Below, piece after piece: positions 3,681 to 39,041 of a stretch of 39,041 nt of DNA. A program made the translations under genes and the position numbers. Numbering within the stretch: the stretch's first letter is position 1; the number at the start of each line of letters is the position of its first letter. The stretch lies in sequence record SRR31156797_2251. One strand, written 5' to 3'. The notes beneath the pieces were generated by a model. The model was given only the letters and a program-made list of their open reading frames with translations. It did no database searches and was not told where the DNA came from.

Positions 3681-3747
3681 GCTTCTTTTCCAGCGACGGG
3701 GATTCGGAACCCATAGATTTAAAACATTATGATTGAAGGAAGAAAAA

Positions 3748-10919: not shown

Positions 10920-10949
10920 TTCTTAAGGCATCCCCATTTCGCAATGGAT

Positions 10950-11627
10950 CTATTCTTCCCCTCGCACAATGGCCTGGTAGCGGGGGAGCAGATTCTGAAG
11001 AAGCAGTTCACTGAGCGCCTGGTCGGACAGATCGATTTCCAGATCTTCGCCCACCAATCGAATCCGGATGCCCCGGTTGAGGGTATCCGAAGGCTTCAGC
11101 TCAACCCCTTCCCGCAGCATATCGGCGGAAATACCCAATACCAGGTGGTGCATTTGCTCTTTGCCTTCAGGTGTCAGGCGTGACCCCGATTCATCGGTTT
11201 CAAAGAGGTCTTTTGGAAGCAGCACTTCAACGGGCTGCCCCTGGCAGACCATATGCCCGGTGGCCATGCCGGAAACCGCCAGAATACACTGCCGGATAAA
11301 TTCCTTGTCGCCCATTTCAATGGATACCAGTCGCCTCACATGGGCGGCGAAGTCCGCCTTCAGCGCGGCTTCCATTTTCAGCTCCGTATCCCGGATGGCC
11401 ATGCGGAGGGAACCCATGCAGGCCTCCTGCTCCCTTTCAATCCGCACCTTGGCACGATTCAGGATTTCTTCCGCTTCGGCTTCCGCTTCCGATACAATGC
11501 GAGCGGCCTCCTCCCGTGCCTCCCGGAGAACCTGGTCGGCTTTTTTGCGGCCCGCCTTTACCCCGTCATCCCTCAGGCGTGCAATCAGTTCCTTTACCCC
11601 TGAGGAAACCTGCCCTTGTTCTTCCAT
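10950..11627 (-). CDS. atpE: V/A-type ATP synthase subunit E
   Basis: N-terminal coiled coil (ELIARLRDDGV...A..I...A..EA), C-terminal GIRI...DLSD..L motif; operon context. Confidence 0.88.
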   Translation of the reverse strand: MEEQGQVSSGVKELIARLRDDGVKAGRKKADQVLREAREEAARIVSEAEAEAEEILNRAKVRIEREQEACMGSLRMAIRDTELKMEAALKADFAAHVRRLVSIEMGDKEFIRQCILAVSGMATGHMVCQGQPVEVLLPKDLFETDESGSRLTPEGKEQMHHLVLGISADMLREGVELKPSDTLNRGIRIRLVGEDLEIDLSDQALSELLLQNLLPRYQAIVRGEE

Positions 11628-11641
11628 TGTTCACCCCCTCC

Positions 11642-12091
11642 TCAACCCCCGGTCACCGTTCCCAACAGCACCAGCGCAAATACAAAGGCAAACACCGCAA
11701 ACCCTTCCACCACCGCTGCCGGGGCAAGGGATACCCCGAAAACCTCGGGTTTGTTCTTTGAGACGCTGATGGATGATGCGCAGGCGTACCCCTGGTAAAC
11801 GGCACTCACCATGAGGGCCACACCCGCGGGAAGACCGATACCGAAAATCCCCGGGGCCGTGGTCCCGTTCATGGCGCCCCCGAAGGTAAGGGTCACCACC
11901 ACCCCGTAAATCACCTGGGAACTGGGCATGGCCGAGACACCGATAAAACGACCGTAGCCGCTTTCAATCTCGAGCATGGCGCCGATGGCCGCCTGCCCGG
12001 CCCTGGCGCAACCGATCATGCTCCCCACGGCGCCCAGGGCCAGGGGTGCAAAAACCCCCAACCACCCCAAGGCTAAAGTCAGGTTTTCCAC
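11642..12091 (-). CDS. atpK: V/A-type ATP synthase subunit K (four-helix proteolipid)
   Basis: GTG start after GGAGAGG; four hydrophobic helices; PSSQVIYG, YQG and VVEGFA motifs. Confidence 0.92.
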   Translation of the reverse strand: MENLTLALGWLGVFAPLALGAVGSMIGCARAGQAAIGAMLEIESGYGRFIGVSAMPSSQVIYGVVVTLTFGGAMNGTTAPGIFGIGLPAGVALMVSAVYQGYACASSISVSKNKPEVFGVSLAPAAVVEGFAVFAFVFALVLLGTVTGG

Positions 12092-13869: not shown

Positions 13870-14489
13870 GGCGTTTCTCCCAAAAGGGCTTTTGCCTGTT
13901 TGCGGCGGATGCGTTTGGTAATTTTGGACCGCACCACGGCCGCCCGATCCGCATCGGCCAGATAAATCCGTATTTTCCGAATATTACCCTTGGCCTCCGG
14001 AATGAGTACTTTTTCAAACAGGTTGGTGCGTTGGGTCACTTTGCGCACCGCCTGCGCCAGCAACCGCACCCGGTCGGCCGTCACCCGAACCAGGGCTTTT
14101 TGGGTGACCATCCGCTCCAGTTGCTCCGCCAGCATGTCCACCCAGTGGGGCCGGGTCAGCATGGAATAATCCCTGATCCCGCATCGAACCGCCACGAGCC
14201 TGGGGAGCCTGACACCCACCACGTTTTCTTCCTGAATATCAATGGCTTCCACATGAACCAGCCCTGCAAGATCCATTTCACCACCGGCCAACATGGGCAA
14301 CTGCTCCGAGACTTCCGAAAGGCGCTTTTCCGTTTCGGCCTGAACCTTCACCAAAACCTCTCGGGCACGCTTCAGTTCCGCGGTCAGCTGCATCCGTTTG
14401 AGCTCCAGGGAAGGGAGCACCCGCTCATAGAGGCGCATGTTTTCACGCTGCTTTTGAAGCCCCGATTTGCTTAAAACCAGTTTGGCCAT
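13842..14489 (-). CDS. atpD: V/A-type ATP synthase subunit D
   Basis: LPSLELKR..L, ENVVGVRLP, TQRTNLFEKVLIP. Confidence 0.95.
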   Translation of the reverse strand: MAKLVLSKSGLQKQRENMRLYERVLPSLELKRMQLTAELKRAREVLVKVQAETEKRLSEVSEQLPMLAGGEMDLAGLVHVEAIDIQEENVVGVRLPRLVAVRCGIRDYSMLTRPHWVDMLAEQLERMVTQKALVRVTADRVRLLAQAVRKVTQRTNLFEKVLIPEAKGNIRKIRIYLADADRAAVVRSKITKRIRRKQAKALLGETPWASFPWKK

Positions 14490-14492
14490 TTG

Positions 14493-15815
14493 TTAACGGT
14501 TTCCCTCGGGAAAATATTTATCAACGAGATCCTGTTTCATCAAAAGCTCTCCCGGTTCAAAACATTCGGAGAGGGTTTCCCAGCAGCGATCCAGGGCCTG
14601 GATCACGGGCATGGAGACCTTGATATCCATGAACCGTTCACGAAAGAGCCCGCCGAATTGAATGAGTTTTTCATCAAAGGGAGAGAGTTCAAAGGCCATG
14701 ATCTGTTTCTTTTCAGCCTCCATGGCCTCCGCATACAAACGGATCATGGTGTTCATCATCTGTCCGTGATCCTCGCGGGTGGCTTTTCCGATCACTTTCT
14801 GTTTCAACCGGGAAAGGGAACCGAAGGGGTCGATATAGCCGTCATGCAGGTAAAACTGTCCTTCGGTAATGTAGCCGGTGTTATCGGGCACCGGATGGGT
14901 CACGTCGTTTCCGGGCATGGTGGTAACCGTAAGAATGGTAACGGAGCCCGCGCCCTTGAAGTCGCAGGCTTTCTCATAGCGCATGGCCAGTTGGGTATAG
15001 AGATCCCCCATGTAACCCCGTGCCGCCGGAATCCGCTCCAGGGAAATGCCGATTTCTTTCATGGCATCGGCGTAAGCCGTCATGTCGGTCATCAATACCA
15101 AAACCCGCTTCCCTTCATCCACGGCAAATTTTTCCGCCACCGCCAGGGCCATATCGGGGATAGAGAGCCGTTCAACGATGGGGTCGGAAGCCAGGTTCAC
15201 ATACATGACGGTCCGGTGAAAGACCCCATGCGCTTCAAAAGCAGTCCTGAAAAAATGGTAATCATCAAAGATCAGGCCCAACCCCCCGAACACCAGGATA
15301 TCCGCATCCGCCTGAAAGCCGATGCGCGCCAGCAATTCGTTGTAGGGCTCGCCGGCCACGGAGAAAATGGGGATTTTCTGGCTTTCCACCAGACAGTTAA
15401 ACAGGTCGATCATGGGGACTTCCGTCTGGATCATTTTGTCGGGGACCACCCGCATCATGGGGTTCACGGTGGGGCCGGCCACTTCAATTTTGGAATCGGA
15501 TGATAAATCCGGACCGTCATCAAAAGGTTCTCCGGATCCCCTGAAAATGCGCCCCAGAATATTGTCGGAGTAGGTCACATTGGGCGGATAACCCAAAAAC
15601 CGCACCACGGCGTCCGTGCTTAATCCTTTACCCCCCGCAAAGACCTGCAGGCTCACCATATCACGATCCAGTGCCACCACCTTGGCCTGGCTGGCTTCCC
15701 CATCCACATTTTCAACAATGGCCAGATCGCCGAAGGCGGCGCCGTCCGATTTTACACGGATGGTATCGCCCACAATCTCCAGCACTCGGGTATGGCGGGT
15801 GAGTTCGGGAAACAT
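14493..15815 (-). CDS. atpB: V/A-type ATP synthase subunit B
   Basis: SQKIPIFS, LVLMTDMT.YADA, THPVPDNTGYITEGQ, SLSRL. Confidence 0.97.
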   Translation of the reverse strand: MFPELTRHTRVLEIVGDTIRVKSDGAAFGDLAIVENVDGEASQAKVVALDRDMVSLQVFAGGKGLSTDAVVRFLGYPPNVTYSDNILGRIFRGSGEPFDDGPDLSSDSKIEVAGPTVNPMMRVVPDKMIQTEVPMIDLFNCLVESQKIPIFSVAGEPYNELLARIGFQADADILVFGGLGLIFDDYHFFRTAFEAHGVFHRTVMYVNLASDPIVERLSIPDMALAVAEKFAVDEGKRVLVLMTDMTAYADAMKEIGISLERIPAARGYMGDLYTQLAMRYEKACDFKGAGSVTILTVTTMPGNDVTHPVPDNTGYITEGQFYLHDGYIDPFGSLSRLKQKVIGKATREDHGQMMNTMIRLYAEAMEAEKKQIMAFELSPFDEKLIQFGGLFRERFMDIKVSMPVIQALDRCWETLSECFEPGELLMKQDLVDKYFPEGNR

Positions 15816-19517: not shown

Positions 19518-20648
19518 TCAGAATGCAAACCAGTTTTCGGCGATGGCCCGGTAAAAGTCCACGGACCGGCCGATCTTTTCCACTTGGCAGTATTCATTGG
19601 TCTGGTGGGCCTGGGACGGTTCGCCCGGGCCGAGGATGAGTGTGGGAGGGTTTTTCATGGCGTATGTCAGGACGGAGGCATCGGTGAAGAAATTGACATA
19701 TCCCGGTTCAGGTTTGTTTCCCTGTATGCCCGCCATGATGTCAAACACCTGTGTGATCCAGGGATCGTCTTGGGGCGTCAAAATGCCGGGGAGGTCGAGC
19801 AGGGTTTCCATGGCGATATCCGGCCCCAGATGGGAGGAGATCTCTTCCAGAAGATGGGCGTGTTCCACGCCCGGAACGCTACGCAGATCCACCCGGAAGC
19901 GGGCGGAATCGGGAACCATGTTGATCTTGCTGCCACCCGTAAAGGTCCCCACGTTCACGGTGGGTTTGCCCAGTTGGGGATGACTTCCGGCCGAGGAAAA
20001 GAAATCCTCCAGGCTGGCGGCGGCCCGGGCCGCCTTGTAGATGGCGTTTTCCCCCAGATGCGGCATGGATCCGTGGGCCGATTTTCCTTTTGCCGTGCAC
20101 TCCAGCCAGAAGGCCCCCTTATGGCCCAGAAGGGGGATGTTGCTGGTGGGTTCCGCCACCACAAGGGCGCCGGCTTCATCAGGCAGGACACCGCTCTCTT
20201 TCATCTGAAAGGCGCCCTCGCTCCCCGTTTCCTCCCCCGCGGTGAATACAAAAACAGCCCCGCCCTTCCCTTTGGGTTCCCGGGCCAGGTGAAGGGCCGT
20301 CACGGCCATGGCCGCGACGCCGCTCTTCATATCGCTGGAACCCCGACCCATAAGACGTCCATCCTTGATTTCCGCGCCGTGGGGAGGGTTCTCCCACGGG
20401 GCGTCGCCCACGGGAACCGTGTCCAGATGCCCGGTGAACACCAGTGGCAGCCGAGACGTGTCCCCGGGAACAACGGCAATGAGCCCCGTGCTGTTTTCAC
20501 CGAGCCGGGGGTAGGAGACCTGGAGTCCGGCTTCGGCCAGAAGCGCGCCCAGATATCTGGCCGCGGGCTCCTCGTTGCCGGGAGGGTTGATGGTGTCCAT
20601 CCGGATAAGGTCTCGGGTCAGTTCAACGGGATCGGGAATATCTGTCAT
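19518..20648 (-). CDS. M20 family metallohydrolase (ArgE/DapE-like)
   Basis: GHLDTVP, GRGSSDMKSG, GEE, EP, GKSAHGS.P..G.NAI, AHQTNE; GAGGTG RBS before ATG 20648. Confidence 0.93.
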   Translation of the reverse strand: MTDIPDPVELTRDLIRMDTINPPGNEEPAARYLGALLAEAGLQVSYPRLGENSTGLIAVVPGDTSRLPLVFTGHLDTVPVGDAPWENPPHGAEIKDGRLMGRGSSDMKSGVAAMAVTALHLAREPKGKGGAVFVFTAGEETGSEGAFQMKESGVLPDEAGALVVAEPTSNIPLLGHKGAFWLECTAKGKSAHGSMPHLGENAIYKAARAAASLEDFFSSAGSHPQLGKPTVNVGTFTGGSKINMVPDSARFRVDLRSVPGVEHAHLLEEISSHLGPDIAMETLLDLPGILTPQDDPWITQVFDIMAGIQGNKPEPGYVNFFTDASVLTYAMKNPPTLILGPGEPSQAHQTNEYCQVEKIGRSVDFYRAIAENWFAF

Positions 20649-20671
20649 GTTTTTCACCTCTTGTGGATGTT

Positions 20672-21391
20672 CTATCCGAAATAGGCCTCCTGGACCTCTT
20701 TGTTGTCGCGCAGGTATTGGGCGTCCCCTTCAGCCACTACCCCTCCCTTGGAGAGCACGTAGCCGTAATCCGAAATGGCGAGGGTCTGCCGCACGTTCTG
20801 TTCCACCAGAAAAACCGTGATGTTCTGTTGCCGGATGTCCTGAATGATGCGGAAGTTCTCCTTCACCAGCAGGGGCGACAGTCCCAGGGAGGGCTCATCG
20901 ATAATCAATAATTTGGGCGCCCCCATCAAACCCCGGCCGATGGAGACCATGGCCTGTTCACCGCCGCTCATGGTACCGGCCAGTTGGGAGACACGCTCCT
21001 TCAGACGGGGGAAAATCCGGTAGACTTTTTCCATGCGTGATAGCAGAACCTGCTTATCATCTTCCTGATACCCCCCCAGTAATAGGTTTTCTTCCACGGT
21101 AAGACCGGGAAAGACCTTGCGCCCTTCCGGGATGGAAGCGAGCCCCCGACGGATAATCTTGTGGGTGGGGAGGTGTGTGATATCGGCGCCCGCAAAAACA
21201 ATACGCCCGGTTCTGGGAGGGGTCAACCCCAGGATGGAACGGATGACGGTGGTCTTTCCCGAACCATTGTTCCCAAGGAGACAGGTAATGGTGCCTGTCA
21301 CCACTTCCAGGGAAAGGTTCTCCAGCACATCGGCCCGGTCATAGGCGGTGTAGATGCCCTGAACACTCAATGATGAAACCTTGTTTTCCAT
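20672..21391 (-). CDS. livF: Branched-chain amino acid-type ABC transporter ATPase
   Basis: GNNGSGKT, MSGGEQ, IIDEPSLGLSP, LVEQN. Confidence 0.93.
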   Translation of the reverse strand: MENKVSSLSVQGIYTAYDRADVLENLSLEVVTGTITCLLGNNGSGKTTVIRSILGLTPPRTGRIVFAGADITHLPTHKIIRRGLASIPEGRKVFPGLTVEENLLLGGYQEDDKQVLLSRMEKVYRIFPRLKERVSQLAGTMSGGEQAMVSIGRGLMGAPKLLIIDEPSLGLSPLLVKENFRIIQDIRQQNITVFLVEQNVRQTLAISDYGYVLSKGGVVAEGDAQYLRDNKEVQEAYFG

Positions 21392-22167
21392 CAGTCCACC
21401 CCCAGATAGGCCTGTTGGACCTCCCTGTCGGAGGCAATCTCCCGGTAGGTTCCCTCGCAGATTTTCTTGCCGAAATTGAGCACCGCACAGTAATCGGTAA
21501 TGCGCTCCATAACGGACATTTCGTGTTCAATGATGATGATGGTCAAATCCTCGATTTTTTCCTTGATGTGAAGGATATCATCAATGAGACGGAAGGTTTC
21601 CTCATGGGTCATGCCCGCTGACGGCTCATCCAGGAGCAGAAGTTTCGGATTGGAGATCAGTGCCCTGCAGATCTCGATGCGACGTCGGGAAATCATGGGG
21701 AGGTTGACCACGGGCTCGAAGAGTCTGTCCGCCAGATCAGGGTCGAAGATGGTAATGAGGTCCCGGCTTTTGTCCCGGATCTCCCGGTACTGGGCCGCCA
21801 GGGCCCCCCTTCTGAAAAGGTTGAAAAAGAGGCCGTTATTGAGCCTGCTGTGGTCCCCAAGGGTGATGTTGTCCATGATGCTCAGCGGCAGAAGAAGACG
21901 GGATCGTTGAAAGGTGCGTGCAACACCCGCCCGGTAAACTTTCTGGGGAGAAAAGTCGGTGATGTCCCCTCCCTCGAATGCCACCTTCCCGGATGTGGTG
22001 GGATAGATGCCGGTGACCACATTAAAAAAAGTGGTTTTGCCGCTACCGTTGGGCCCGATGAGGCCGAGAATCCGATTTCGCGCCACATCCAGGTCCAGAT
22101 CCGACAAAGCCGTTACGCCGCCAAATTTTTTTCCGAGTTTTGAGATACCGAGCAATACCTTCTGCAA
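21391..22167 (-). CDS. livG: Branched-chain amino acid-type ABC transporter ATPase
   Basis: GPNGSGKT, ARTFQ, LLLDEPSAG, IEHEM, VQQAYLG. Confidence 0.93.
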   Translation of the reverse strand: MQKVLLGISKLGKKFGGVTALSDLDLDVARNRILGLIGPNGSGKTTFFNVVTGIYPTTSGKVAFEGGDITDFSPQKVYRAGVARTFQRSRLLLPLSIMDNITLGDHSRLNNGLFFNLFRRGALAAQYREIRDKSRDLITIFDPDLADRLFEPVVNLPMISRRRIEICRALISNPKLLLLDEPSAGMTHEETFRLIDDILHIKEKIEDLTIIIIEHEMSVMERITDYCAVLNFGKKICEGTYREIASDREVQQAYLGVD

Positions 22168-22183
22168 TGTGAATCCTTACTTT

Positions 22184-23353
22184 TTAACGATTTTGAGATG
22201 ATTTCAACGTAATATAACTGCGCAGGGGACGCGGCAGCAGACCCTGGGGCCGGAACAGCAGGATGGCGATCACCAAGGCGGAAAACAACAGAAAGCGATA
22301 CTCCTGCAGGACCTGGAATTTTTCAGGAATCAGGATGACAATGACCGTTGCCACCACGGTCCCCCACATGGAACCCAAGCCCCCCAGAATCACAATGGAC
22401 AAAAGGATCAGTGAGTCTCCGAAAGTGAAGTTGGTCGGCGCAATGTACCCGAGCATCATGGCGTAAAAAGCACCCGCCACCCCGCAATAGAAATTTCCGA
22501 TGGTAAAGGCCGTAATCTTCCACCTTGGGATGGATTGTCCGAAACAGGCGCTCACCGTTTCATCCAGACGTACCGCGTCCATGTTGAGGCCTACCCAGGA
22601 ATCCTCCATGCGACGCGCCATAATAAAACCTGAAATGAGCAGCACCAGGATAACGGCGATATATCCCAGATAGAAGCACCCCTCAAGGGAACCGATCACA
22701 ATATCCCGGTTGAAATCCCAGCCGAACAGGTTTAATCCGGCGCTCTTCAACCCCTGGGGCCCGCCCAGGGTGTCGTTCACCTCCAGAAAGGTCTTGAACA
22801 GGAGGGCAAAGGCGATGGTCACCAGGGCCGCGTAGTGCCCCCGGGTCTTAAGCACCGGAATCAAAATAAGAAAGCCCAAAAGCGACGCCATCAAGCCGCC
22901 CAGAAAGAGGACCGCCAGATGCGGCACCATTGTATTTTTGGTGAGGACGGCCGCCGTGTAACACCCGACCCCGAAAAAAGCGGCGCCCGCGAAGTTCAAA
23001 ACGCCCACGAAACCGAATTGGATATTCAAACCCAGACAGGTGAGCACATAGACCAGGACCGTACCCACGAGAAAAAGCACAAAGGGATCATCGTAAAAAT
23101 ATAGGCTCACGGCCAAAACCCCGGCAACCACGGCCATGGCAAAAGCGCGCTGGTTATCCTTTGCGCTCTCCCCCACGGCATCCAGGACCCGCAAATATTT
23201 GAACGCGGTCACGACGAGTCCGGCCCCTAAAAGGAGCCCGAAAATCACCATCTGCGACTCGCCCGCCAGGAAAAATACCATGTAGACGACACCCGCCAAC
23301 ACCGCAAGGAGAGAAGGTAAAAAGGAAGTTCGTTTCCTTGATGACTCAGACAT
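22184..23353 (-). CDS. livM: Branched-chain amino acid-type ABC transporter permease
   Basis: GLNIQFG..G, RGHYAALVT.AF, VILGGLGS, RPQGL. Confidence 0.92.
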   Translation of the reverse strand: MSESSRKRTSFLPSLLAVLAGVVYMVFFLAGESQMVIFGLLLGAGLVVTAFKYLRVLDAVGESAKDNQRAFAMAVVAGVLAVSLYFYDDPFVLFLVGTVLVYVLTCLGLNIQFGFVGVLNFAGAAFFGVGCYTAAVLTKNTMVPHLAVLFLGGLMASLLGFLILIPVLKTRGHYAALVTIAFALLFKTFLEVNDTLGGPQGLKSAGLNLFGWDFNRDIVIGSLEGCFYLGYIAVILVLLISGFIMARRMEDSWVGLNMDAVRLDETVSACFGQSIPRWKITAFTIGNFYCGVAGAFYAMMLGYIAPTNFTFGDSLILLSIVILGGLGSMWGTVVATVIVILIPEKFQVLQEYRFLLFSALVIAILLFRPQGLLPRPLRSYITLKSSQNR

Positions 23354-23357
23354 TCGT

Positions 23358-24278
23358 TTAGACTCTTTCCGTTTCTTTTTCGCCCAGAAGGCCGGTGGGT
23401 TTGATGGCGATCAGGATGATGACCATGCCGAATGCAAAAACATCCTTGTATGCACTGGCGAAAGGCAATGCCGCGGCGCCGATGGTCTGTAGCAGGGCGA
23501 ACAGGAACCCCCCTACGATGGCGCCGTAAATGTTTCCAAAACCGCCGACGGCGGCGGCGGAAAAGCCGATGGCACCCAGGAGCAATCCCATATTAAAGCT
23601 TAATTCATTATAGTACAGGCCGTAGATCACGCCGGCAAAAGCCGCAAGGCCGCTCCCGATGGCAAAGGTGACATACACCACCATGTTGAAATTGATCCCC
23701 ATGATCCGGGCGGTTTCTTCGTCCTGACTCACGGCGCGGATGGCCATCCCCAACTTGCTGCGTTTGATGATGATCTGCACCAGCATGATCATTAAAATGC
23801 CGGCAATGAACATGGCGGCATTGTCAAACCGCAAGGTGAAATGTCCCCAGGAATGACTCCAGTCGGGCAGGAGCGCCGGGAAATGTTTGGGATTGGCGCC
23901 GTCGGGGTAGAACAGGCGGATGGACTCCCTGAGCACGGTCCCCAACATGAGGGTAATCAACAGGGTGTTGAGGGGCGGGGCCCCTTTTAAGGGTATGATC
24001 AAGACTTTGGCAATGACCGCTCCCAAAAAACCGATGGCCGCCATGGAAATCACGGCCACGATCACGAGAATGAACCAGGGGGAGGAAAAGCCAACAAGGG
24101 CAAGGCCTAGATAGGCTGAAAATGCCGTGAAAACGCCCCAGGTCAGCATATCGCCGTGGGAAAATTTGATGACGTCCAGCACACCGAAAAAGAGGGTGAA
24201 CCCCACCGCCACCAAAGAGTATATCAACCCCAGCATGAGTCCGTTTACAATATGCTGGGCTATGAGTCCAATGTCCAT
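23358..24278 (-). CDS. livH: Branched-chain amino acid-type ABC transporter permease
   Basis: NGL.LG.IY.LVAVGFTL.FG....FSHG, G.AIRAV.QD...A..MGIN, KPTGLLG. Confidence 0.93.
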   Translation of the reverse strand: MDIGLIAQHIVNGLMLGLIYSLVAVGFTLFFGVLDVIKFSHGDMLTWGVFTAFSAYLGLALVGFSSPWFILVIVAVISMAAIGFLGAVIAKVLIIPLKGAPPLNTLLITLMLGTVLRESIRLFYPDGANPKHFPALLPDWSHSWGHFTLRFDNAAMFIAGILMIMLVQIIIKRSKLGMAIRAVSQDEETARIMGINFNMVVYVTFAIGSGLAAFAGVIYGLYYNELSFNMGLLLGAIGFSAAAVGGFGNIYGAIVGGFLFALLQTIGAAALPFASAYKDVFAFGMVIILIAIKPTGLLGEKETERV

Positions 24279-24316
24279 GAGGGATTTGTCCGTATGTCAG
24301 GTGGAAAAACCGGCTA

Positions 24317-24345
24317 GGTGGAGCGGGTTGTTTTCCCGCTCCACC
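24317..24345. other. Intercistronic 11-bp hairpin after the binding-protein gene
   Basis: GGTGGAGCGGG-TTGTTTT-CCCGCTCCACC; typical position for an mRNA-stabilising or partial-termination stem. Confidence 0.65.
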
Positions 24346-24357
24346 CATGCGTTGGGG

Positions 24358-25518
24358 TTAGCGTCTTTTGAGCTTGCGCTTGCCGGTAGCATATTCGGAA
24401 TTCTGCCACGGCACCCATTTTCCGTCCTGGACCACATACTTGGTAATGGCCGGGGAAATGTTCTGACCGTGTTCGTCAAAGGTTACGGAACCCACGATGG
24501 CTTCATACCCCTGAATGTTTTCCATGCGCTTCACCACGGCTTTTCGGCTGGGGCCCACCTCTTCAATCACATCCAGAATCAGGTTCATGGCGGCAAAGGC
24601 GAAGGGGCCGAAGGCATCCGGCGCTTCCTTATAGCCTACCTTGTCGTATTCTTCCAGGAACCATTTCCCCCCCGGAAGATTTTCCACGGGCTCCCCTTCC
24701 CTGAAGGCGATGGTCCCTTCGGCAAGGTCACCCGTCCCCGTGATAAAGGCATCGGAAATGATACCCGAGCAACTCTGGAACTGACTGGTGAGGCCCAGTT
24801 TCTCCATCTGCAGCCGGATACGCACGCCCAGGGGCGTAAGCCCTCCGAACCAGATCACGTCGGGATTGAGTTTCTTGGCCTGGGTGAGTTCCGCGGTAAA
24901 ATCCTGCTGATCGGAGGTGACACCGAAACTGCCCAGTATTTTGCCGCCGTTCTGGGTGAGATATTTGGAGAAGTATTCGTTCATCCCCTTGCCGTAGTCG
25001 GTGGTGTCATAGAGATTCACCCAGGTCTTGTATCCCAGGCCCGTGATGAATTTCGCGGCGATATCGTTCTGATTGATCATGGTGCCGTTAATCCGGTGGA
25101 TCTCTTTGTATTTGTTTCCGTAGGTAATCCCCGGATGGACCGCGCCCCAGACCACAATGGGCAGGCCGAATTTGTGGTAAACATCCACGGAGGCCAGCGC
25201 CACCACGGAGCAATAATGTGCCGCGGCGGCGATGATCTTTTTGTTTGCGGCCGCCTTGGTGGCCACCTGCACACCCGAGTTGGGCTTACACTCATCATCG
25301 AGCACCACCAGTTCGTAATGGTATTTGGCCTTGGGGTCCGCGTTTCTCAGCTTCACCGCAAGATCCGCCGAGTTCCTTCCCCCGACGCCGATGGCGGAAA
25401 CACCCCCGGTAAGAGGCCCGATGAAGGCCACTTCAACGGTCTTCTTTGCCAGAACCGGGCCGGCTGTCATCACCAGAAGCAAACCGATCACAATACTTAT
25501 TAAGCTCCTCAATTTCAT
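24358..25518 (-). CDS. livK: Branched-chain amino acid-type ABC transporter substrate-binding protein
   Basis: Signal peptide, GPLTG...G, LDDECKP, HYCS, DYGKG, G.VTFDEHG; strong RBS. Confidence 0.92.
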   Translation of the reverse strand: MKLRSLISIVIGLLLVMTAGPVLAKKTVEVAFIGPLTGGVSAIGVGGRNSADLAVKLRNADPKAKYHYELVVLDDECKPNSGVQVATKAAANKKIIAAAAHYCSVVALASVDVYHKFGLPIVVWGAVHPGITYGNKYKEIHRINGTMINQNDIAAKFITGLGYKTWVNLYDTTDYGKGMNEYFSKYLTQNGGKILGSFGVTSDQQDFTAELTQAKKLNPDVIWFGGLTPLGVRIRLQMEKLGLTSQFQSCSGIISDAFITGTGDLAEGTIAFREGEPVENLPGGKWFLEEYDKVGYKEAPDAFGPFAFAAMNLILDVIEEVGPSRKAVVKRMENIQGYEAIVGSVTFDEHGQNISPAITKYVVQDGKWVPWQNSEYATGKRKLKRR

Positions 25519-27385: not shown

Positions 27386-28375
27386 TCAACAAGTCTTCCC
27401 CCTCACCTTCAAGCCCAGCTCCTTTAACAGTTCCAGGTCCTTCTGAAGGGTACGGCCATGGGTGGTGAGATAGTTACCGGTCATCATGCCATTGGCACCC
27501 GCCTGAAAAATGCGATCATGACGATCTCCCAAGCCGGCTTCCCTTCCGCCGCAAACCAGGATATTGGTATCCGGAAGGACATACCGGAAAAGCGAGATAA
27601 TTTTGAGGCACCGCAAGGGAGAGACCTTTGGGTAATGGGCCATGGGGGTCCCTTCAATGGGCACCAGGAAATTGATGGGAACGGCATCCACCTTCAAATC
27701 CTTCAGGGCCAACGCCAGTTCAAGCACCTGTTCATCGGTCTCCCCGATGCCGAAAATACCGCCCGAACACACACTCAACCCCGCCCGTTTCGCGTTCAAA
27801 ACGCAGTTCACCCGTTCCTCATAGGTGTGTGTACCGCACATATTTTGAAAATGACTCTTGGCGGTTTCCAGGTTGTGATGGTAGCGGCTCACCCCCGCTT
27901 TTTTCAGTACTTGAAAATCATCGGGAGCCAAAATACCCAGGGAGGCGCAGGTCTTGACCTTGTCCGGATCCAACGCACCGAGGGCTTGTGCAACGGCAGT
28001 CACTTCATGGGGCGGCAGACGCCGGCCGCTGGTGACCACGGCATATCGGTTAATGGGGGTTTGGGATGCATATTCGCCGCCCGCCATGAGCTTTTCTTTG
28101 TTCAGAAGGGGATAAACCCTGGCATTTGTCTTTGAAGATGCCGACTGGGAACAAAAAACGCAATCTTCGCTGCACTTCCCCGATTTCCCGTTACAAATGG
28201 TACACAGGTGAATCTCGGATGCGAAACGCGCTTTGCGGATCCGGTCCGCGCCCGCCATGAGCAAATGAACATCTTGCGCCGGCGTATCCACGATGATCCT
28301 GTAGGCCTCTGCCCCGAAAGGTTTCCCGCTAAGAATATTCTCCGTTAAAGTATTCAGTTCTTTTTTTCTATCCAT
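27386..28375 (-). CDS. bioB: Biotin synthase
   Basis: Radical SAM CSEDCVFCSQ, YHHNLET, CSGGIFG.GE, VPINFL, GNYLTT; ATG 28375 follows the bioD stop. Confidence 0.97.
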   Translation of the reverse strand: MDRKKELNTLTENILSGKPFGAEAYRIIVDTPAQDVHLLMAGADRIRKARFASEIHLCTICNGKSGKCSEDCVFCSQSASSKTNARVYPLLNKEKLMAGGEYASQTPINRYAVVTSGRRLPPHEVTAVAQALGALDPDKVKTCASLGILAPDDFQVLKKAGVSRYHHNLETAKSHFQNMCGTHTYEERVNCVLNAKRAGLSVCSGGIFGIGETDEQVLELALALKDLKVDAVPINFLVPIEGTPMAHYPKVSPLRCLKIISLFRYVLPDTNILVCGGREAGLGDRHDRIFQAGANGMMTGNYLTTHGRTLQKDLELLKELGLKVRGKTC

Positions 28376-28380
28376 GATTC

Positions 28381-29013
28381 TTATGACCCGAAACATCGGC
28401 GAAAAATGTTCCTTAAGGTCACCTTGTCGATGCGCTCCAATGGTTCGATTTCGGCACAGACCGCGGTGTTTCCATAACGTTCAATGGCCTTGCGGTTATC
28501 CGGGTTTCGAGGGCCGTTCATTACCACCCCCAAAACCTGCAGGGAATGGTTTTTCAGCAGATCCAATGACAGCAGGGTGTGGTTGATGGTACCGAGACCG
28601 CTTTCCGCAACCAGCAAGATCGGCAGTTGAAGTTTTTTCATGAGATCCAGCATCAGGTGATGATCGTTTAAGGGAACCATAATACCCCCCGCACCCTCCA
28701 CGATAAGATGCCCCCCGGAGGTTTGGGGAAGGTCCATTGATTGGAGATCGATGGAAATCCCGTCTTTTGCCGCCGCCACATGGGGCGACAGGGGAAACCG
28801 AAACCGGTAGCTTTCAGGATAAAAATGGCTCGGGGGCAGGCCGGTCATCTCCTGCACACACGCCGTATCGGTTTTTTCATGGAGACCGCTCTGAATGGGC
28901 TTCCAGTATCGGGCCGAAAGGCCGGCCACCAGAATGGCGCTCACAAAGGTTTTGCCCACGCCGGTGCCCGTGCCGGTGACAAATATCCCGGAAGGCAGGT
29001 CAACGGTTCCCAT
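28381..29013 (-). CDS. bioD: Dethiobiotin synthase
   Basis: FVTGTGTGVGKT, YWKPIQSG, VEGAGG, LGTINHTLLS. Confidence 0.97.
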   Translation of the reverse strand: MGTVDLPSGIFVTGTGTGVGKTFVSAILVAGLSARYWKPIQSGLHEKTDTACVQEMTGLPPSHFYPESYRFRFPLSPHVAAAKDGISIDLQSMDLPQTSGGHLIVEGAGGIMVPLNDHHLMLDLMKKLQLPILLVAESGLGTINHTLLSLDLLKNHSLQVLGVVMNGPRNPDNRKAIERYGNTAVCAEIEPLERIDKVTLRNIFRRCFGS

Positions 29014-30166
29014 GGGAATGCCCCTCCTTGAATAGTTGAATCAGGTATTCCAATTGTGCCATGGTATGCGGTACCGAAAGGGCCAGCCGGATTCTGGACT
29101 CCCCCTCGGGCACCGTGGGAGGGCGTATTGCAGTGGCCATAACCCCCCTGTTTTCAAGATGCCGGGAAAGGGCCAGGGCTTCCGTCTCCCCGCCCACCAA
29201 CACCGGAACAATCTGCGTATCGGAACTCCCGGTTCTCCACCCCAGTTTCCGCAGGTGCGCCCTCAAAAAATCAGCCTTGGCATGGAGTTCTTTGCGTTCT
29301 TTCTCCATGGCGGGGATGAGGTCGAGGGCCGCATCAATGGAACCGATGACCGACGGGGGCATGGCCGTTGTGTAAATAAATCCCGAACAGCAGTTCACGA
29401 GATAATCACGAAGCTTATGGGAGCACGCCGCATAGGCCCCGAAAGAGCCGCATGCCTTTCCGAAGGTGCCGATGGTTAAATCCACGCCCTTTCCGCAGCA
29501 AAGCCCCATGCCCCTTGTCCCCAGAACACCGGTGGCATGGGCCTCATCCACCACCAGCAACGCGTCAAAGGAACGGGCAAGCTCAACCAGGGATGCGATA
29601 TCGCTCCGGTCGCCATCCACACTGAACACCGATTCGGTCACAATGATACGCCGTGAAAACCGTTTGTTGGTATTTTCCCTGAGAAGCTCCTCCAGGTGGC
29701 CCACATCATTATGCCTGAACCGAAGCACATGGCAGCGGGAAAGCAATGCACCCTGAACGATGCTGCTGTGATTCAATCGGTCCGACAGGATCAGGGTCTG
29801 CCGGTCGGCCAATGCCGGCAGGATGGACACATTTGCCTGAAATCCCGAATTGAGAATCAGCGCGGCTTCCGTCCCTTTCAGCTCCGCCAGTTTTTCCTCC
29901 ACAGCCTCAAAACAGTCATAGGTGCCGCAAATCAATCGCGATGCCGTAGAGCCCGCTCCATAACGCTTGGTAAATTCAACGGCTCTTTGGATGAGCAGCG
30001 GATGTTTTGAAAGCCCCAGGTAATCATTGGAACAGAAATTCATGGCCTTTCGACCCCTGATGCGAACATCCACCCCTGTAAGGGGCGTGACCGACTGCAA
30101 CCGCCTCAGGTGCGATTGCCGCCTGCGACGGTCCAGTTCTTCCTCCATGAATCGATATTTGTTCAT
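29000..30166 (-). CDS. bioF: 8-amino-7-oxononanoate synthase
   Basis: [39 protein letters not shown]. Confidence 0.96.
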
Positions 30167-31488
30167 ATGGATGATTTCTTTTCCGGGTCTTCCAGTTGAA
30201 TCACCTCCACCATGGCCCGGGTGACGCGTGCCAGCTGGGATGAATCAATGATATAGGGCGGCATGGTATAGACCAGCTTTCCAAAGGGCCTGATCCAGAC
30301 CCCTTTTTCCACAAACCGTTTTTGCATGCGGGCCATATCCACCACATGTTTCAGCTCAACCACGCCGATGGCGCCTAAAGCGCGCACATGGGCAACCCAG
30401 GGCAATTTTTTAAGGGGCGTCAACGCGGCCCTAAGCTGGGCCTCGATCCGCATCACCCGCTCTTTCCAGGGAGAAGCCAGAAGGAGCCTGACGCTGGCCG
30501 CCGCCACGGCGCAGGCAAGGGGGTTGGCCATGAAGGTGGGGCCGTGCATGAACATGCCGGGCTCACCTTTCGAAATGCCGTCGCTCATGTCACGGGTGGT
30601 CAGAGTAGCCGCCAGGCTCATGTATCCCCCGGTGAGCGCCTTTCCCACACACATGATATCCGGTGAAATGCCCGCCTTTTCACAGGCGAACATGTGGCCT
30701 GTGCGCCCGAAGCCGGTTGCGATTTCATCCAGGATAAGGAGCACGTCAAACTCACGGGAAAGCTCCCGAACCCGCCGCAGGTAATGGGGAGAATAGAACC
30801 GCATCCCCCCGGCCCCTTGAACCACCGGTTCCAGGATAATGGCCGCGATTTCTCCGTGGTGCCGTTCAAGAATGGTTTTGAAGCTCTCCATATCCCTTTC
30901 ATCCCACGGTTCGTCATAGCCGCACCCGGGGGCGTCTGCAAAATAATGTTTTGCAAGAATGCCTTCAAAAATCGTGTGCATGCCGGTCACCGGATCACAC
31001 ACGGCCATGGCACCGAAGGTATCGCCATGGTACCCCGACCGTACGGTCAAAAGCCGGTGTTTGTCAGGCCGGCCTCTTGCCTGCCAGTATTGAACCGCCA
31101 TTTTAATGGCCACTTCAACGGAAACGGAACCGGAATCGCTGAAGAAGACATTTTGGAGCGGTTCAGGGGTCAGGTCCACCAAAAGGGTAGCCAACCGAAC
31201 GGCGGGCGCATGGGTCAACCCCCCGAACATGACATGGGCCATTTTTTCCAACTGAGTACGTGCCGCCTCGTTGAGTACCGGGTGATTATACCCATGGATG
31301 GCGGCCCACCAGGAGCTCATACCGTCAATGAGTCGCCTGCCGTCTTCCAAAATGAGATGCACGCCCTTGGCCGCGGCAACCGGATACACGGGAAGCGGGT
31401 CCCTCATGGAGGTGTAGGGATGCCAGATGTGAGTCCGATCAAATGCGGATAAATCATGATTCCCGGAGTTTTCCATAATTCTCTTCAT
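30163..31488 (-). CDS. bioA: Adenosylmethionine-8-amino-7-oxononanoate transaminase
   Basis: [59 protein letters not shown]. Confidence 0.97.
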
Positions 31489-34806: not shown

Positions 34807-37269
34807 TCAATTTGTAGATATTTGATTATTTAAGGATGTCCCCATGTCCTCCCTGCTAGTTGTGCTGTTTTTGGATATTCCATCGATGGTGGATCTTACA
34901 GCCTGAGCGATCGCTTCCAAAGAGTATGGTTTTCTGAGATACACCCCGGCGCCCAAATCCAGAGCTGCTTTCACTCGACTTGTCTCGGAAAAACCACTGG
35001 CGATGGTGGTTTTCTGCCCCGGCCGGATTTCAAGAGCCTTTTGGTAGGTTTCCAGGCCGTCCATTCCGGCAGGCATGACCATGTCCAACAACAGCACATC
35101 CACCTTCCGCTCTCGCAATACCGCCAGGGCTTGTTCGCCACTGGCCGCGGATTCCACAAGGTAGCCGAGTCGTTTCAGCATGTCAGTGGCGATCTCGCGC
35201 TGTTCGAGTATGTCATCCACCACCAGTACGGACTCTCCTCTCCCTCCGATGGATTCGATGTCCACTCTGGGGCTCACCATTGCCGCCGAATCCCTGCACA
35301 GAGGAAAGTAGAGCTGGAAGGTCGTGCCTTTCCCTTCGCTGCTTTCAACATCGATGTAGCCATGGTGATCTTTGACGGTTCCCCAAACCACCGCCATACC
35401 CAGCCCAGTACCACTTCTGCCCATTTGTTTCCGGGTAAAGAAAGGCTCGAAAATCCTTTCCAGAACTTCGGGTGACATCCCGACGCCGTTGTCGGACACC
35501 GTCAATCTCGCATATTCCCCCTCGTTCACATCGTCATAACCGCGCAGAGGGGTGTCTATATAGATATCCTCAGACGTAACGATGATTTTTCCATTGCCCG
35601 AAATAGCTTCTGCCGCATTGATAATCAAATTCATAAACGTCTTCGACAAATGAACAGATGATCCCTTGATGACACCGAAACGGCTGTTCAATTGCGCGTC
35701 CACCTCCAAGCCCGCATGGTCCTCGCTGATTCTTGCGAATTCCGGGCTGTCGAGAAACTCGGTCACCACGTCGTTCAAACGCACAATCTGGAAGTCCATA
35801 ACATTCCGTCTGGCTAAGGTAAGGAGATCCTGCACAATGGCCGCCGCTTTTTCCCCGGATGTCTTTATGGTGGTGATTGCCTTACGGAGCGGATCGTCTT
35901 GAGCCAGATCCATCAGGATCAGATCCGGATAGGTCACGATCCCAGACAGGATGTTGTTCAGATCGTGGGCGACACCGCCGGCAAGCGTTCCGATGGCCTC
36001 CATTTTTTCGGCTCTGTTCAGTTTGGCTTCAAGATCTCCACGCGCTCTCTCGGATTCGGTGTGATCCTCGATTTCCTTACGCAATTGACGGTTGATTTCG
36101 ATCAGTTCCGAAGTCTTTTCCCGAACCTTTATTTCAAGATACTCACGGGCCTCATCCAACTCTCGAAATTGATTGTCTATTGTTGTTGCCATCGTATTTA
36201 AGGCATTTTGAACGATCTGAAATTCACTTGAAACGTCAGGTCGGACATCTATTCGGTAGGACAAATCCTCCTGGATCCGTTTCGTTTCTTCCACGGTTTC
36301 CAGGATCTGCCGGATGATGGATCGGCCGCAGTAAAGGACGAAGCCGGCCAACAACAGGCTGGCCAGAAAAATCAACAATTGCAGCCGCTCGCTGTCGGTT
36401 ATGATTTCCCTGTTGGATGCGACGATGGTCTCACTGGCCTTCCGAAAGGCTTGAGCCATCCGGGATCGATTATCGGTTAACCGATTCATGGATTGTCTTT
36501 TCCTGTCTTGGAATTCCAGCAGTCTTGCGAAAGATTCCTCAAGGGTTCTCCCCGTCATCAACAATTCTTCGACGAGCAGGCCGTCTTGGGCATCCAGAGA
36601 ATAATCTTCGAAATTATTCACCGAATCGTAGAATTTCTTCACATTTCGCATAAAAGCGGCCTTCTGGGCCTTCCCTTCCCGGTTTTGCTGCAACACATAG
36701 AAGTGGGTCAAAAGATCCAGCAAACTCGTTTGGATGGCGGTGGCGGCGCTGACAATATCCAGTTCCGACGCCGATTTGACGGGGCTTCGCTGAAAATTCT
36801 TGCCGGTATCATAATCTTGAATTGCAGCGCTCCGAGCCATCAGGTTTTTCAAGTAGGCGATATGGTGTTCATGAATGTAGCGAACACTCGCAGCCAGTTG
36901 TGGAAGTACCTTGTAGGCGTTGCGATGCAACATCAGGCATTCATTCTCGGCGGCAAGCAATTGCTCGAAAATCCGTCTTCTCTCCATCTGCAGATCTTCG
37001 TCGATGACCGAGTTCAGTGTGGTGCTCAATTGGGCCAACTGATCATATTTCTTTTGAAGCCGAGGATATTGGGATGGGTCGGCCACAGTTGTATCTTCCA
37101 GATGTACCAACTCGGACAGGAAGTTTTGCAGCATCAGGATGGAATGGTAGCGGGTATCAGCGCGGTCGGCAATCCTTCCGAGATAGGCGTTCACACCCAG
37201 GAGCATGGCCAAAGCAACGATGAACAGAGTGGTCAACCTGATTTTGGCTTTTATAGATTTGGGAAGCAT
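34807..37269 (-). CDS. Membrane-bound hybrid sensor histidine kinase/response regulator
   Basis: TM1, about 270-aa extracytoplasmic domain, TM2, HAMP-like linker, AHDLNN H-box, INAAEA, DNGVG, GTGLG, C-terminal receiver (VVDD, LLD, KP). Confidence 0.95.
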   Translation of the reverse strand: MLPKSIKAKIRLTTLFIVALAMLLGVNAYLGRIADRADTRYHSILMLQNFLSELVHLEDTTVADPSQYPRLQKKYDQLAQLSTTLNSVIDEDLQMERRRIFEQLLAAENECLMLHRNAYKVLPQLAASVRYIHEHHIAYLKNLMARSAAIQDYDTGKNFQRSPVKSASELDIVSAATAIQTSLLDLLTHFYVLQQNREGKAQKAAFMRNVKKFYDSVNNFEDYSLDAQDGLLVEELLMTGRTLEESFARLLEFQDRKRQSMNRLTDNRSRMAQAFRKASETIVASNREIITDSERLQLLIFLASLLLAGFVLYCGRSIIRQILETVEETKRIQEDLSYRIDVRPDVSSEFQIVQNALNTMATTIDNQFRELDEAREYLEIKVREKTSELIEINRQLRKEIEDHTESERARGDLEAKLNRAEKMEAIGTLAGGVAHDLNNILSGIVTYPDLILMDLAQDDPLRKAITTIKTSGEKAAAIVQDLLTLARRNVMDFQIVRLNDVVTEFLDSPEFARISEDHAGLEVDAQLNSRFGVIKGSSVHLSKTFMNLIINAAEAISGNGKIIVTSEDIYIDTPLRGYDDVNEGEYARLTVSDNGVGMSPEVLERIFEPFFTRKQMGRSGTGLGMAVVWGTVKDHHGYIDVESSEGKGTTFQLYFPLCRDSAAMVSPRVDIESIGGRGESVLVVDDILEQREIATDMLKRLGYLVESAASGEQALAVLRERKVDVLLLDMVMPAGMDGLETYQKALEIRPGQKTTIASGFSETSRVKAALDLGAGVYLRKPYSLEAIAQAVRSTIDGISKNSTTSREDMGTSLNNQISTN

Positions 37270-37282
37270 GATCCCGGGATCT

Positions 37283-38092
37283 CTAGTTTCCGGGCTCCAA
37301 AGGATAACCCAGTTTGATCCAGCGTCGCATCCCGAAGCGAAGACCCTTTACGTTGGTGTAATGGTGGAGATGCAAGTATCTCATGACCAACGCGTCCCGA
37401 TTCCCGGTCTCAGTGACAGTGATAACCTGTCCCGTTCTTGGAATGGCTTGCCTCACCTCCGGTTTGCGTAGATCATCAAACAGAATCCGCAAGGTTGGGC
37501 AGCTGGTTTTAATCGATGGTACGGCCTTATCTGTTGAAAGAAAATACTCAGTTCGCAGGTCCAGAATGGTTAAAAAACAATTTCCTTTGTCATCCCGGCA
37601 CTCCATTTCTTCCGTTTCTTTGATTGCTTGAAGCAGTTCTTCGGATGAAATGAACGGGGTCTCGCATTCAGGAAGATTTTCAATTACATCCAGTGCATGT
37701 CCGGCTTTTTTCCAATCCTTGATGCCGCCATTGTAGATTTTGATATTCCGAAAACCAAGATATTTTACGGCAACTGCCGCTTTGTAGGCGAAAACTCACC
37801 TGTACCCCATTCAGTAAGTGACGATCAATCTGTCCTTGTCTTGGCCCAGCCGGCCCTGCAACTCCTTGATCCTGCTCCAGGGAACATTAACGGATCCGGG
37901 GATAGAAGCATTACGGTAGATCATTTCATCGAGGCTGTTCAGCAGCAGAAAATCGATTTTTCCCGCATCTCTGTCTTCCAGCATCTGAACCAGTTGTTGA
38001 GTGGTGACAATATCGAATCGTTCCAAAGCGTAGGCAGGAAAGGACCACGCCAGCACGATGAACAACCCAATTCGGATCAATTTCCTCATCAT
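37283..38092 (-). CDS. Secreted tandem-rhodanese protein with two in-frame UGA codons (predicted double selenoprotein, about 269 aa)
   Basis: AGGAGGT RBS; signal peptide ending AYA; IPGSVNVPW...LIVTY-TGA-MGYR-TGA-VFAYKAA...LGFRNIKIYNGGIKDW. The frame runs on without stops into the 37606-37283 ORF (second rhodanese fold, GLRFGMRRW..LGYP). Confidence 0.85.
37767..37801 (-). promoter_or_regulatory. Two adjacent SECIS-like hairpins
   Basis: AGGTGA-GTTT-TCGCCT (loop begins 15 nt after the first TGA) and GCGGC-AGTT-GCCGT (loop begins 20 nt after the second TGA); both loops contain G. Confidence 0.55.
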
Positions 38093-38142
38093 GACCTCCT
38101 GATTTCTAAAAGAATACCCTATCAACTCAGTATAGTTCATGT

Positions 38143-38351: not shown

Positions 38352-39041
38352 TCACAAGAGATTTTCAAAAAAATCGTTACCCTTGTCATCTACCAGGATA
38401 AATGCGGGGAAATCCTTGACCGTGATCTCATAGACGGCTTCCATGCCCAGTTCCGGATATTCAAGCACTTTCACCTGGGTGATGCACTCTTTCCCGAGAC
38501 GCGCCGCGGGACCGCCGATGGATCCCAGATAGAATCCGCCATAGGCTTTGCATGCATCGGTCACCTGCCGGGAACGGTTCCCTTTGGCCAGCATCACCAT
38601 GGATCCGCCCCGTTTCTGGAAAACGGGAACATAGGGATCCATGCGGGCGGCCGTTGTGGGGCCGAAAGAGCCGGACGCATATCCTTCGGGCGTTTTGGCC
38701 GGCCCCGCATAGTAAATGATGTGGTCTTTCATATACCGCGGTAAATCTTCACCGGCATCCAGGCGCTCCTTGAGCTTGGCATGGGCCATATCCCGGCCCA
38801 CCACAATTTTTCCGGTGAGCAACAGGGGCGTGGCCACGGGGTATTTTGTCAGGATTGCCCGAATCTCATCCATGGGCCGGTTCAGATCAATCCGCACGGC
38901 ATCTTCAAAGGCGCTGTCAAGGGAGGGCAGATATTTGGCGGGCTCGGCTTCAAGCTGCTCCAGGAAAATCCCATCCCGGTTGATTTTCCCTTTGACATTG
39001 CGGTCCGCACTGCAACTGACGCCCATTCCGATGGGGCAGGA
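38352..39041 (-). CDS. Class I (Fe-S) fumarate hydratase, 3' part; start lies beyond the window
   Basis: [69 protein letters not shown]. Confidence 0.95.

Follow-up and report, generated by a model that had tools for sequence, protein, structure and literature searches.

Rhodaneses containing selenocysteine (Sec) have been described in several forms. The available part of a 2026 review (PMC13188914) lists five of them: forms 1–4 are given with the motifs UxxS, UxxG, CxU (NF041203) and UxxG, and form 5, credited to Haft & Tolstoy 2025, is TsoB, in which two Sec residues occupy a UxxxxU motif. An additional rhodanese form, UxU, appears in an excerpt of the report on an Olavius symbiont (PMC1976440), and a periplasmic Sec-containing polysulfide reductase of Geobacter appears in an excerpt of another (PMC13510729). 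Here we analysed a 39,041-nucleotide stretch of DNA (sequence record SRR31156797_2251; hereafter the window) that carries a gene for a candidate exported rhodanese with two in-frame UGA codons in its active-site loop, followed directly by a gene for a hybrid sensor histidine kinase. A first-pass annotation of the window had proposed a two-Sec rhodanese at this locus, citing single-Sec rhodanese-like proteins as precedent. The proposal stood; the background was incomplete, since two-Sec loops are already in print for TsoB (UxxxxU) and the Olavius symbiont (UxU), as far as the excerpts cited go. The two-Sec rhodanese loop is therefore known from TsoB, and the window protein is a variant of known rhodanese selenoproteins that is unannotated publicly. 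In our assessment a true two-Sec protein is very probably encoded here, and the overall account that explains the data best, an exported two-Sec rhodanese with two selenocysteine insertion sequence (SECIS) hairpins and a co-sensor role alongside the kinase, is a likely one.

The NCBIfam models closest to the window protein were TsoB (NF045694; 48.3 bits against a curated cut-off of 805, profile positions 43–159 of 572) and rhodanese_LYCAU (NF041203; 34.8 bits against a cut-off of 115). Both scores lie below the curated cut-offs, which rules out membership in either family, and no NCBIfam model captures the rhodanese family of the window. The likeness to TsoB resides in a rhodanese domain that stands behind an N-terminal membrane or signal segment and contains the loop [FT]Y-U-x-G-x-x-U-V, both Sec residues of which align with those predicted for the window protein (37% identity over 98 amino acids, E 2e-12). 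The two systems belong to the same phylum, and both have hairpins that span the second UGA and follow it; the six TsoB genes that we read all encode F-Y-U-A-G-L-[TA]-U-V, with a hairpin folding over the second UGA. Above the TsoB cut-off there were 24 matches, in 20 of the 301 phylum genomes sampled, and all of them have two TGA codons. TsoB differs from the window protein in its length of 572 positions, its DsbD-like membrane domain and its three-selenoprotein operon, whereas the window protein is 269 residues long, lacks a membrane domain and has an apparently dead second rhodanese domain. A further difference is the pairing of the window protein with a sensor kinase; relatives also show its first Sec to be facultative, in contrast to TsoB, where this codon is always TGA. 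Two short stand-alone matches to the TsoB rhodanese region (G056:C23:38466-38939 and G165:C12:105050-105412) have two and three in-frame TGA codons, respectively, and lack a DsbD domain; these may be additional free rhodaneses with multiple Sec residues.

Forms 1–4 and the UxU form share with the window protein a Sec in or beside the active-site loop and an occurrence mainly in Deltaproteobacteria/Desulfobacterota. They differ by having one Sec (two in UxU) and other motifs, a comparison made by description from the available parts of the two sources (PMC13188914, PMC1976440), in which there is no mention of a tandem dead domain or a kinase link for these forms. C-x4-U-x-x-S is present in the wider superfamily, and the 'UxxS' form may have the same second-site Sec as the window protein. 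Among solved structures, the best single-domain match is BH2092 of Bacillus halodurans (3NHV/3O3W; E 4.6e-11), whose Y-C-W-G-P-A-C aligns residue by residue with Y-U-M-G-Y-R-U and which gives a Foldseek target template modelling score of 0.69–0.76. BH2092 has Cys at both sites and a single domain, was crystallised as a construct without a signal peptide, and is a structural-genomics entry with no known function. The word 'rhodanese' does not occur in the main text of the BSepDB and deep-Sep papers, and a literature search combining rhodanese, periplasmic, sensor histidine kinase and polysulfide returned no such pair by title or abstract. Supplementary selenoprotein lists aside, we did not find in print a free secreted tandem-domain form, a facultative first Sec with its own hairpin, or a link to a kinase.

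The gene is a single minus-strand frame of 269 residues whose only internal stops are two TGA codons, around which the translation reads ..IVTY-U-MGYR-U-VFAYKAA.. (Table 1). The first-pass annotation had joined two listed open reading frames of 121 and 107 amino acids across these codons, and the frame reads as it described: both are parts of the 269-codon frame, the longer one beginning farther upstream (38176) and the shorter one at an internal Met (37606). Judged by the Shine-Dalgarno-like motif ahead of it, the gene would start at ATG 38092 or ATG 38089, with the better spacing for 38089. When a public run that may represent the source sample was re-assembled independently, the whole gene was covered with 0 differences at a depth of 37.5. 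A diverged contig from a marsh metagenome (depth 2) has 18 differences over positions 37730–37879, none of them at either TGA, so the assembly error that the first-pass annotation had listed as a means of refutation did not materialize. The run containing the window carries another, diverged copy of the rhodanese gene family on a 3.9-kb contig (matching window positions 37308–37336 and 37689–37751). The loose end of this contig resembles the hairpin-2 region of the Cys-Sec type described below, and the copy may be a paralogue or belong to a second organism.

We then asked how the two TGA codons fare among relatives. A protein search returned 61 homologues, of which 5 were full length and about 55 were pieces of 150–190 amino acids; all ten pieces that were aligned start 1–8 residues past the second TGA. 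Such fragments stand in public annotation as, for example, a 173-residue 'hypothetical protein' (Desulfosarcina alkanivorans) and a 161-residue 'rhodanese-like domain-containing protein' (Fundidesulfovibrio soli). A profile search over 1.84 billion representatives yielded N-terminal fragments ending at profile position 92 or 97, corresponding to either TGA, as well as remoter uninterrupted two-domain proteins of 235–270 amino acids with a signal peptide. Scanning the DNA of one genome per species identified 21 close loci, nearly all in Desulfobacterota and including those of Desulfosarcina alkanivorans, Fundidesulfovibrio agrisoli, Desulfocapsa and Geopsychrobacteraceae. All 21 loci have TGA at site 2; site 1 reads TGA in 11 and TGC/TGT in 10. 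Three further loci were added from whole-genome searches and 16 from metagenomes; left out of the resulting set were L043 (the same as L013), L048 (the same as L003), L029 (the same as L001), L047 (without the region) and L022 (outside the family). In the final 38 non-identical genes, site 2 is TGA without exception, and site 1 divides into 24 TGA and 14 Cys codons (TGC/TGT), which bears out two Sec codons in one gene. The loop was also read in 31 distant homologues, 24 of which have C-x4-C, with C-x4-S among the others. Both TGA positions thus pair with Cys in homologues, the classical Sec signature, and the finding of TGA or TGY at both codon positions in all 38 relatives places the two in-frame TGA codons beyond chance. 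Along the tree, the state of site 1 changed at least six times, at least four of these on well-supported branches. One divergent member, L032 (G205:C98), has the loop U-M-G-Y-T-U, a shifted hairpin 1 and a different loop in the second domain, and the 1.5 kb downstream of it contain no kinase.

These data refute the possibility that the gene is a pseudogene or an assembly error, or that TGA now encodes Trp or Gly. Reassignment would fit the W that some database proteins show at these sites; in the DNA, however, the W codons are TGA (L036, L044), and site 1 alternates with Cys rather than with Trp or Gly, the outcome on which the first-pass annotation had staked its proposal. TGA is the normal stop of the kinase gene, of bioB and of two aminotransferase genes in the window, Pfam-supported genes among them, and it also ends the rhodanese gene itself in L001, L002, L003 and L010; because TGA terminates ordinary genes, it is not reassigned. 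Frames are intact in 38/38 relatives with TGA/TGY at both codons, and the re-assembly agrees, leaving to any of these explanations a negligible probability. In-frame UGA codons conserved with an intact downstream frame, and Cys homologues at the UGA positions, are what is expected of a selenoprotein gene, and the family displays both. Moreover, selB and tRNA-Sec were detected above curated cut-offs in 5/5 genomes carrying relatives.

A different possibility is that only UGA 2 is efficiently read as Sec, with UGA 1 serving mostly as a stop or attenuator and little or no two-Sec protein being made. Efficient insertion at two UGA codons so close together is demanding, and site 1 is dispensable in the sense that 14/38 genes have Cys there. 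Against this, TGA occupies the catalytic position in 24 genes from several lineages with at least 4–6 switches, the 175 codons downstream are fully conserved, and TsoB keeps both TGA codons in all 24 matches above the cut-off. We regard this explanation as highly improbable.

Each UGA is followed closely by a SECIS-type hairpin, that after UGA 1 with short spacing and limited statistics; the first-pass annotation had missed these paired hairpins, as it had the conserved kinase partner. Counted from the U of the respective UGA, the loop GU lies at +19/+20 in hairpin 1 and at +25/+26 in hairpin 2. Across relatives (37 rows), the loop of hairpin 2 is AGUU or GGUC, with the G and U invariant. Its helix is paired in 96.8% of cells, and three of the five pairs are altered on both sides (C-G in 22 rows versus U-A in 10; G-C in 33 versus A-U in 4; A-U in 24, G-U in 9 and G-C in 3). 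These exchanges shift the encoded amino acids in step (T/A..V versus M/V..I), indicating that the RNA constrains the protein. The covariation score of both helices jointly (0.218) was above 500/500 shuffles and all slid controls. Hairpin 1 has a mean energy of −5.0 kcal/mol in the 24 TGA-TGA genes versus −0.5 kcal/mol in the 14 Cys-TGA genes, and it reaches −3.0 kcal/mol or better in 21/24 of the former versus 1/14 of the latter. In the close pair L017 (TGA) and L002 (Cys), hairpin 1 differs in step with the site 1 codon; over 4 independent contrasts it tracks the codon in 3–4 and runs in the opposite direction in 0. Hairpin 1 is retained in L045 and L046 by a double change from G-C to A-U, and in L032 by a shifted helix. 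Folded alone, the 101-nucleotide region is no more stable than its shuffles (z −0.13); support for the hairpins thus comes from comparison across genes, not from folding energy.

We propose that the SelB/tRNA-Sec system would read both UGA codons as Sec, with hairpin 2 serving the always-present UGA 2 and hairpin 1 the facultative UGA 1. Hairpin 1 would melt as the ribosome advances by 15 nucleotides, UGA 2 being in its stem. Several observations weigh against this proposal. The sign test for the link between hairpin 1 and UGA 1 is not significant (p 0.125–0.5, with only 4–6 independent contrasts), and hairpin 1 is weak in three TGA-TGA genes (L041, L045 and L046). Its loop begins just 15 nucleotides past UGA 1, compared with +27 to +29 for the loop in the FdhA SECIS of two relatives; the spacing is also shorter than in the E. 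coli fdhF SECIS. Rfam returned 0 matches for the whole window at gathering scores, and a permissive scan of 37700–37860 gave three chance-level matches (E 3–5) and no SECIS family. ARAGORN detected no tRNA gene in the window, Sec machinery genes are likewise absent from it, and no RNA runs containing the gene were listed among public sequencing runs.

Some of these observations would fit a single SECIS, hairpin 2, serving both UGA codons, with hairpin 1 as a by-product of codon choice or a helper. Covariation is clear in hairpin 2, and hairpin 1 is unusually near UGA 1 and weak in the three genes just named. The loop of hairpin 2, at 35 nucleotides past UGA 1, also falls within the 16–37-nucleotide range of the bSECISearch model. 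The stability of hairpin 1 in 21/24 TGA-TGA but 1/14 Cys-TGA genes, its tracking of the codon and never the opposite, its retention through a double change or a shifted helix, and the TsoB hairpin over the second UGA all argue for a function of hairpin 1 of its own, and we consider a single SECIS unlikely.

Table 1. Features of the two-UGA rhodanese gene and its neighbour, in window coordinates
Feature	Position	Strand	Remarks
Shine-Dalgarno-like AGGAGG	38095..38100	-	2 nt ahead of ATG 38092, 5 nt ahead of ATG 38089
Whole rhodanese gene	37283..38092	-	from ATG 38092; 269 codons plus TAG stop (37285-37283); relatives 41-58% identical, full-length, 19 genome loci
Signal-peptide-like segment, residues 1-22	38027..38092	-	basic start, hydrophobic core, A-Y-A ahead of L23-E-R-F
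N-terminal active-type rhodanese domain, ~residues 25-135	37688..38020	-	Pfam PF00581, best stretch 31-130
UGA 1, predicted Sec94	37811..37813	-	catalytic-Cys position; facultative among relatives
UGA 2, predicted Sec99	37796..37798	-	last residue of the six-residue loop
Hairpin 1	37786..37801	-	6 bp, loop GUUU; UGA 2 inside the 5' arm; candidate SECIS for UGA 1
Hairpin 2	37767..37780	-	5 bp, loop AGUU; candidate SECIS for UGA 2
C-terminal degenerate rhodanese domain, ~residues 148-264	37301..37651	-	second Pfam stretch, alignment and model
Loop E228-T-G-N-R-D233	37394..37411	-	invariant in the family; aligns with U-M-G-Y-R-U
Hybrid sensor histidine kinase, 820 aa	34807..37269	-	same orientation, 13 nt downstream of the rhodanese stop

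The predicted protein has two rhodanese domains behind its N-terminal segment. The signal-peptide-like layout of this segment, read from the sequences by eye, is common to all 20 that were aligned, and the protein looks like one exported to the periplasm through a general secretory (Sec)-type signal peptide, with about 247 mature residues, in agreement with the export already suggested for it. Pfam PF00581 matches two stretches (57.9 bits against a cut-off of 22.2). An AlphaFold2 model built with the family alignment (predicted local distance difference test score, pLDDT, 90.8; predicted template modelling score 0.81) consists of two alpha/beta domains, and its Foldseek matches include 6MXV, 1YT8 and 3NHV; sequence matches include two periplasmic rhodaneses, Sud (1QXN) and PspE (2JTQ). 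Residue 94 coincides with the active-site Cys in alignments with the solved rhodaneses 6MXV and 3NHV, and the second TGA closes the six-residue loop at the place where distant homologues complete C-x4-C. Both TGA codons therefore hold the positions that the first-pass annotation had assigned to them, and its description of the second domain as a rhodanese lacking the Cys was equally apt: E-T-G-N-R-D aligns with U-M-G-Y-R-U, Glu and Asp taking the places of the two Sec residues of domain 1. With this Cys-less loop, the second domain is predicted to be catalytically dead. It has two near-invariant Cys residues, Cys165 (37598–37600) and Cys198 (37499–37501), which possibly form a structural disulfide in the periplasm. 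In the first domain, Sec94 and Sec99 would form a redox pair, present as selenol/selenol or as Se-Se, and as Se-S in the Cys-Sec forms; this pair would correspond to the C-x4-C of Cys homologues and to U-x-G-x-x-U of TsoB.

The kinase encoded next to the rhodanese consists of a transmembrane segment (12–31), a helical periplasmic domain (approximately 33–294), a second transmembrane segment (296–316), and HAMP, HisKA, HATPase_c and receiver domains; its periplasmic domain of about 260 residues has no Pfam match. A kinase of this kind lies directly downstream in 21/21 genome loci and in 13/19 additional loci, the six misses being L032, the divergent member, and five loci whose downstream sequence extends for 409 nucleotides or less. 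The gap between rhodanese and kinase ranges from −4 to 46 nucleotides. No third conserved neighbour was found beside the pair, leaving the kinase as the sole conserved neighbour. Beside members of the wider C-x4-C/U superfamily the kinase was present in 2/30 loci (1.5-kb flanks), both of which belong to this rhodanese family, so the link is specific to this family. Two motifs of the sensor domain, Y-I-H-x-H-H (36862–36879, residues 131–136) and L-D-A-Q-D-G (D-A-Q-D-G at 36580–36594, residues 226–230), are invariant in 18 orthologues and may be where a metal, a ligand or a partner makes contact. In five orthologous kinases (L005, L013, L016, L019 and L020) the periplasmic sensor contains a CxxCH haem-c motif, about 250–300 nucleotides into the gene, which the window's kinase lacks; these motifs hint that the sensor family handles redox signals.

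The model of the sensor domain is all-helical (pLDDT 85.8). The top five rows of its Foldseek search all come from TorS sensors (E 2.9e-4 to 2.3e-3) and include three TorS-TorT complexes; the Foldseek-independent VIA comparison aligned it with TorS at Z 14.7 over 238 residues and 3.1 Å. On the strength of the model, the fold appears to be that of a two-module helical periplasmic sensor. The locus resembles the TorT-TorS system for trimethylamine N-oxide sensing in E. coli and Vibrio (3O1H, 3O1I and 3I9W), which likewise has a hybrid kinase with an all-helical periplasmic sensor, encoded beside a signal-carrying periplasmic protein; sequence identity between the TorS sensor and that of the window kinase is 10–16%. 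By analogy, a TorT/TorS-like partnership of rhodanese and kinase is attractive. The rhodanese gene would be co-transcribed with the hybrid kinase, whose sensor would be a helical bundle of the TorS/McpS type, and the rhodanese would serve as co-sensor in the periplasm, signalling redox state or the presence of sulfane sulfur/selenium (polysulfide-type species) to the kinase in the way that TorT does for TorS. Such a co-sensor role, as a redox or sulfane-sulfur/selenium-reactive module, is the most likely function, and we put it forward tentatively. Speaking against it, VIA ties TorS with McpS (15.2), McpZ (14.7) and PilJ (13.6) and places an unrelated helical TTYH3 chain first; since the fold-mates McpS, McpZ and PilJ bind small ligands themselves, the kinase may need no protein partner. 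TorT, moreover, is a periplasmic binding protein and not a rhodanese.

The protein might instead be a free periplasmic enzyme, a sulfane-sulfur/selenium transferase or a reductase of, for example, polysulfide, with the kinase merely co-transcribed or regulating the enzyme's pathway. Rhodanese domains are usually enzymes, Sud and PspE being among the matches noted above; McpS and PilJ, which share the sensor fold of the kinase, are direct ligand binders; in TsoB the homologous domain is joined to a DsbD-like electron conduit, as would suit an enzyme; and a periplasmic Sec polysulfide reductase is described for Geobacter in the available part of its source (PMC13510729). Yet no redox partner, reductase or transporter is conserved beside the pair, the two genes are −4 to 46 nucleotides apart in every locus examined, and the kinase link is family-specific (2/30 superfamily loci). 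A free enzyme is the main rival and in our view only a little less likely than the co-sensor. That the gene is so strictly paired with a kinase points to a sensing use of selenium chemistry here, beyond catalysis alone. As a speculative extension, which we hold with some reserve, this would be the first selenoprotein to act as a signalling component: a Se-Se/Se-S switch would sense polysulfide-type sulfur, selenium or redox state and signal to a TorS-like kinase, the switch being made by means of two nested SECIS hairpins, with lineages switching between Cys and Sec by gain or loss of one hairpin.

The combination of split annotation and the want of an NCBIfam model has kept invisible a whole family of periplasmic proteins, with two Sec residues or one, in Desulfobacterota that cycle sulfate and sulfur. 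Close relatives with Cys or Sec as the catalytic residue, and a hairpin that comes and goes with the codon, constitute a natural experiment in which the joint origin of a new Sec codon and its SECIS becomes directly testable. Cultured carriers exist for both forms, Desulfosarcina alkanivorans PL12 (Cys-Sec) and Fundidesulfovibrio agrisoli SG106 (Sec-Sec). The family is rare, with 4/401 genomes sampled from the phylum, and rarer than TsoB. The wider C-x4-C tandem family occurs in 55/401 genomes, and TGA was seen in 27/72 of the matches listed, several of them C-x4-U. Many other tandem C-x4-C rhodanese genes of the phylum (L049, L050, L063, L075, L076 and more) carry TGA for the second Cys of the loop (C-x4-U), and L076 does so in both domains. 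By their sequences, these C-x4-U genes probably encode additional selenoproteins that are under-annotated.

Elsewhere in the window, positions 3733–6318 (plus strand) encode an 861-residue protein with an N-terminal metallo-beta-lactamase/ODP domain, the other approximately 600 residues of which have no Pfam match at E 1e-5. The neighbourhood is otherwise ordinary, with minus-strand genes at 8441–15815, 19518–25518, 27386–31488 and 38352–39026 for a V/A-type ATPase operon, a branched-chain amino-acid ATP-binding cassette transporter with an M20 peptidase, biotin synthesis and the C-terminal subunit of fumarase.

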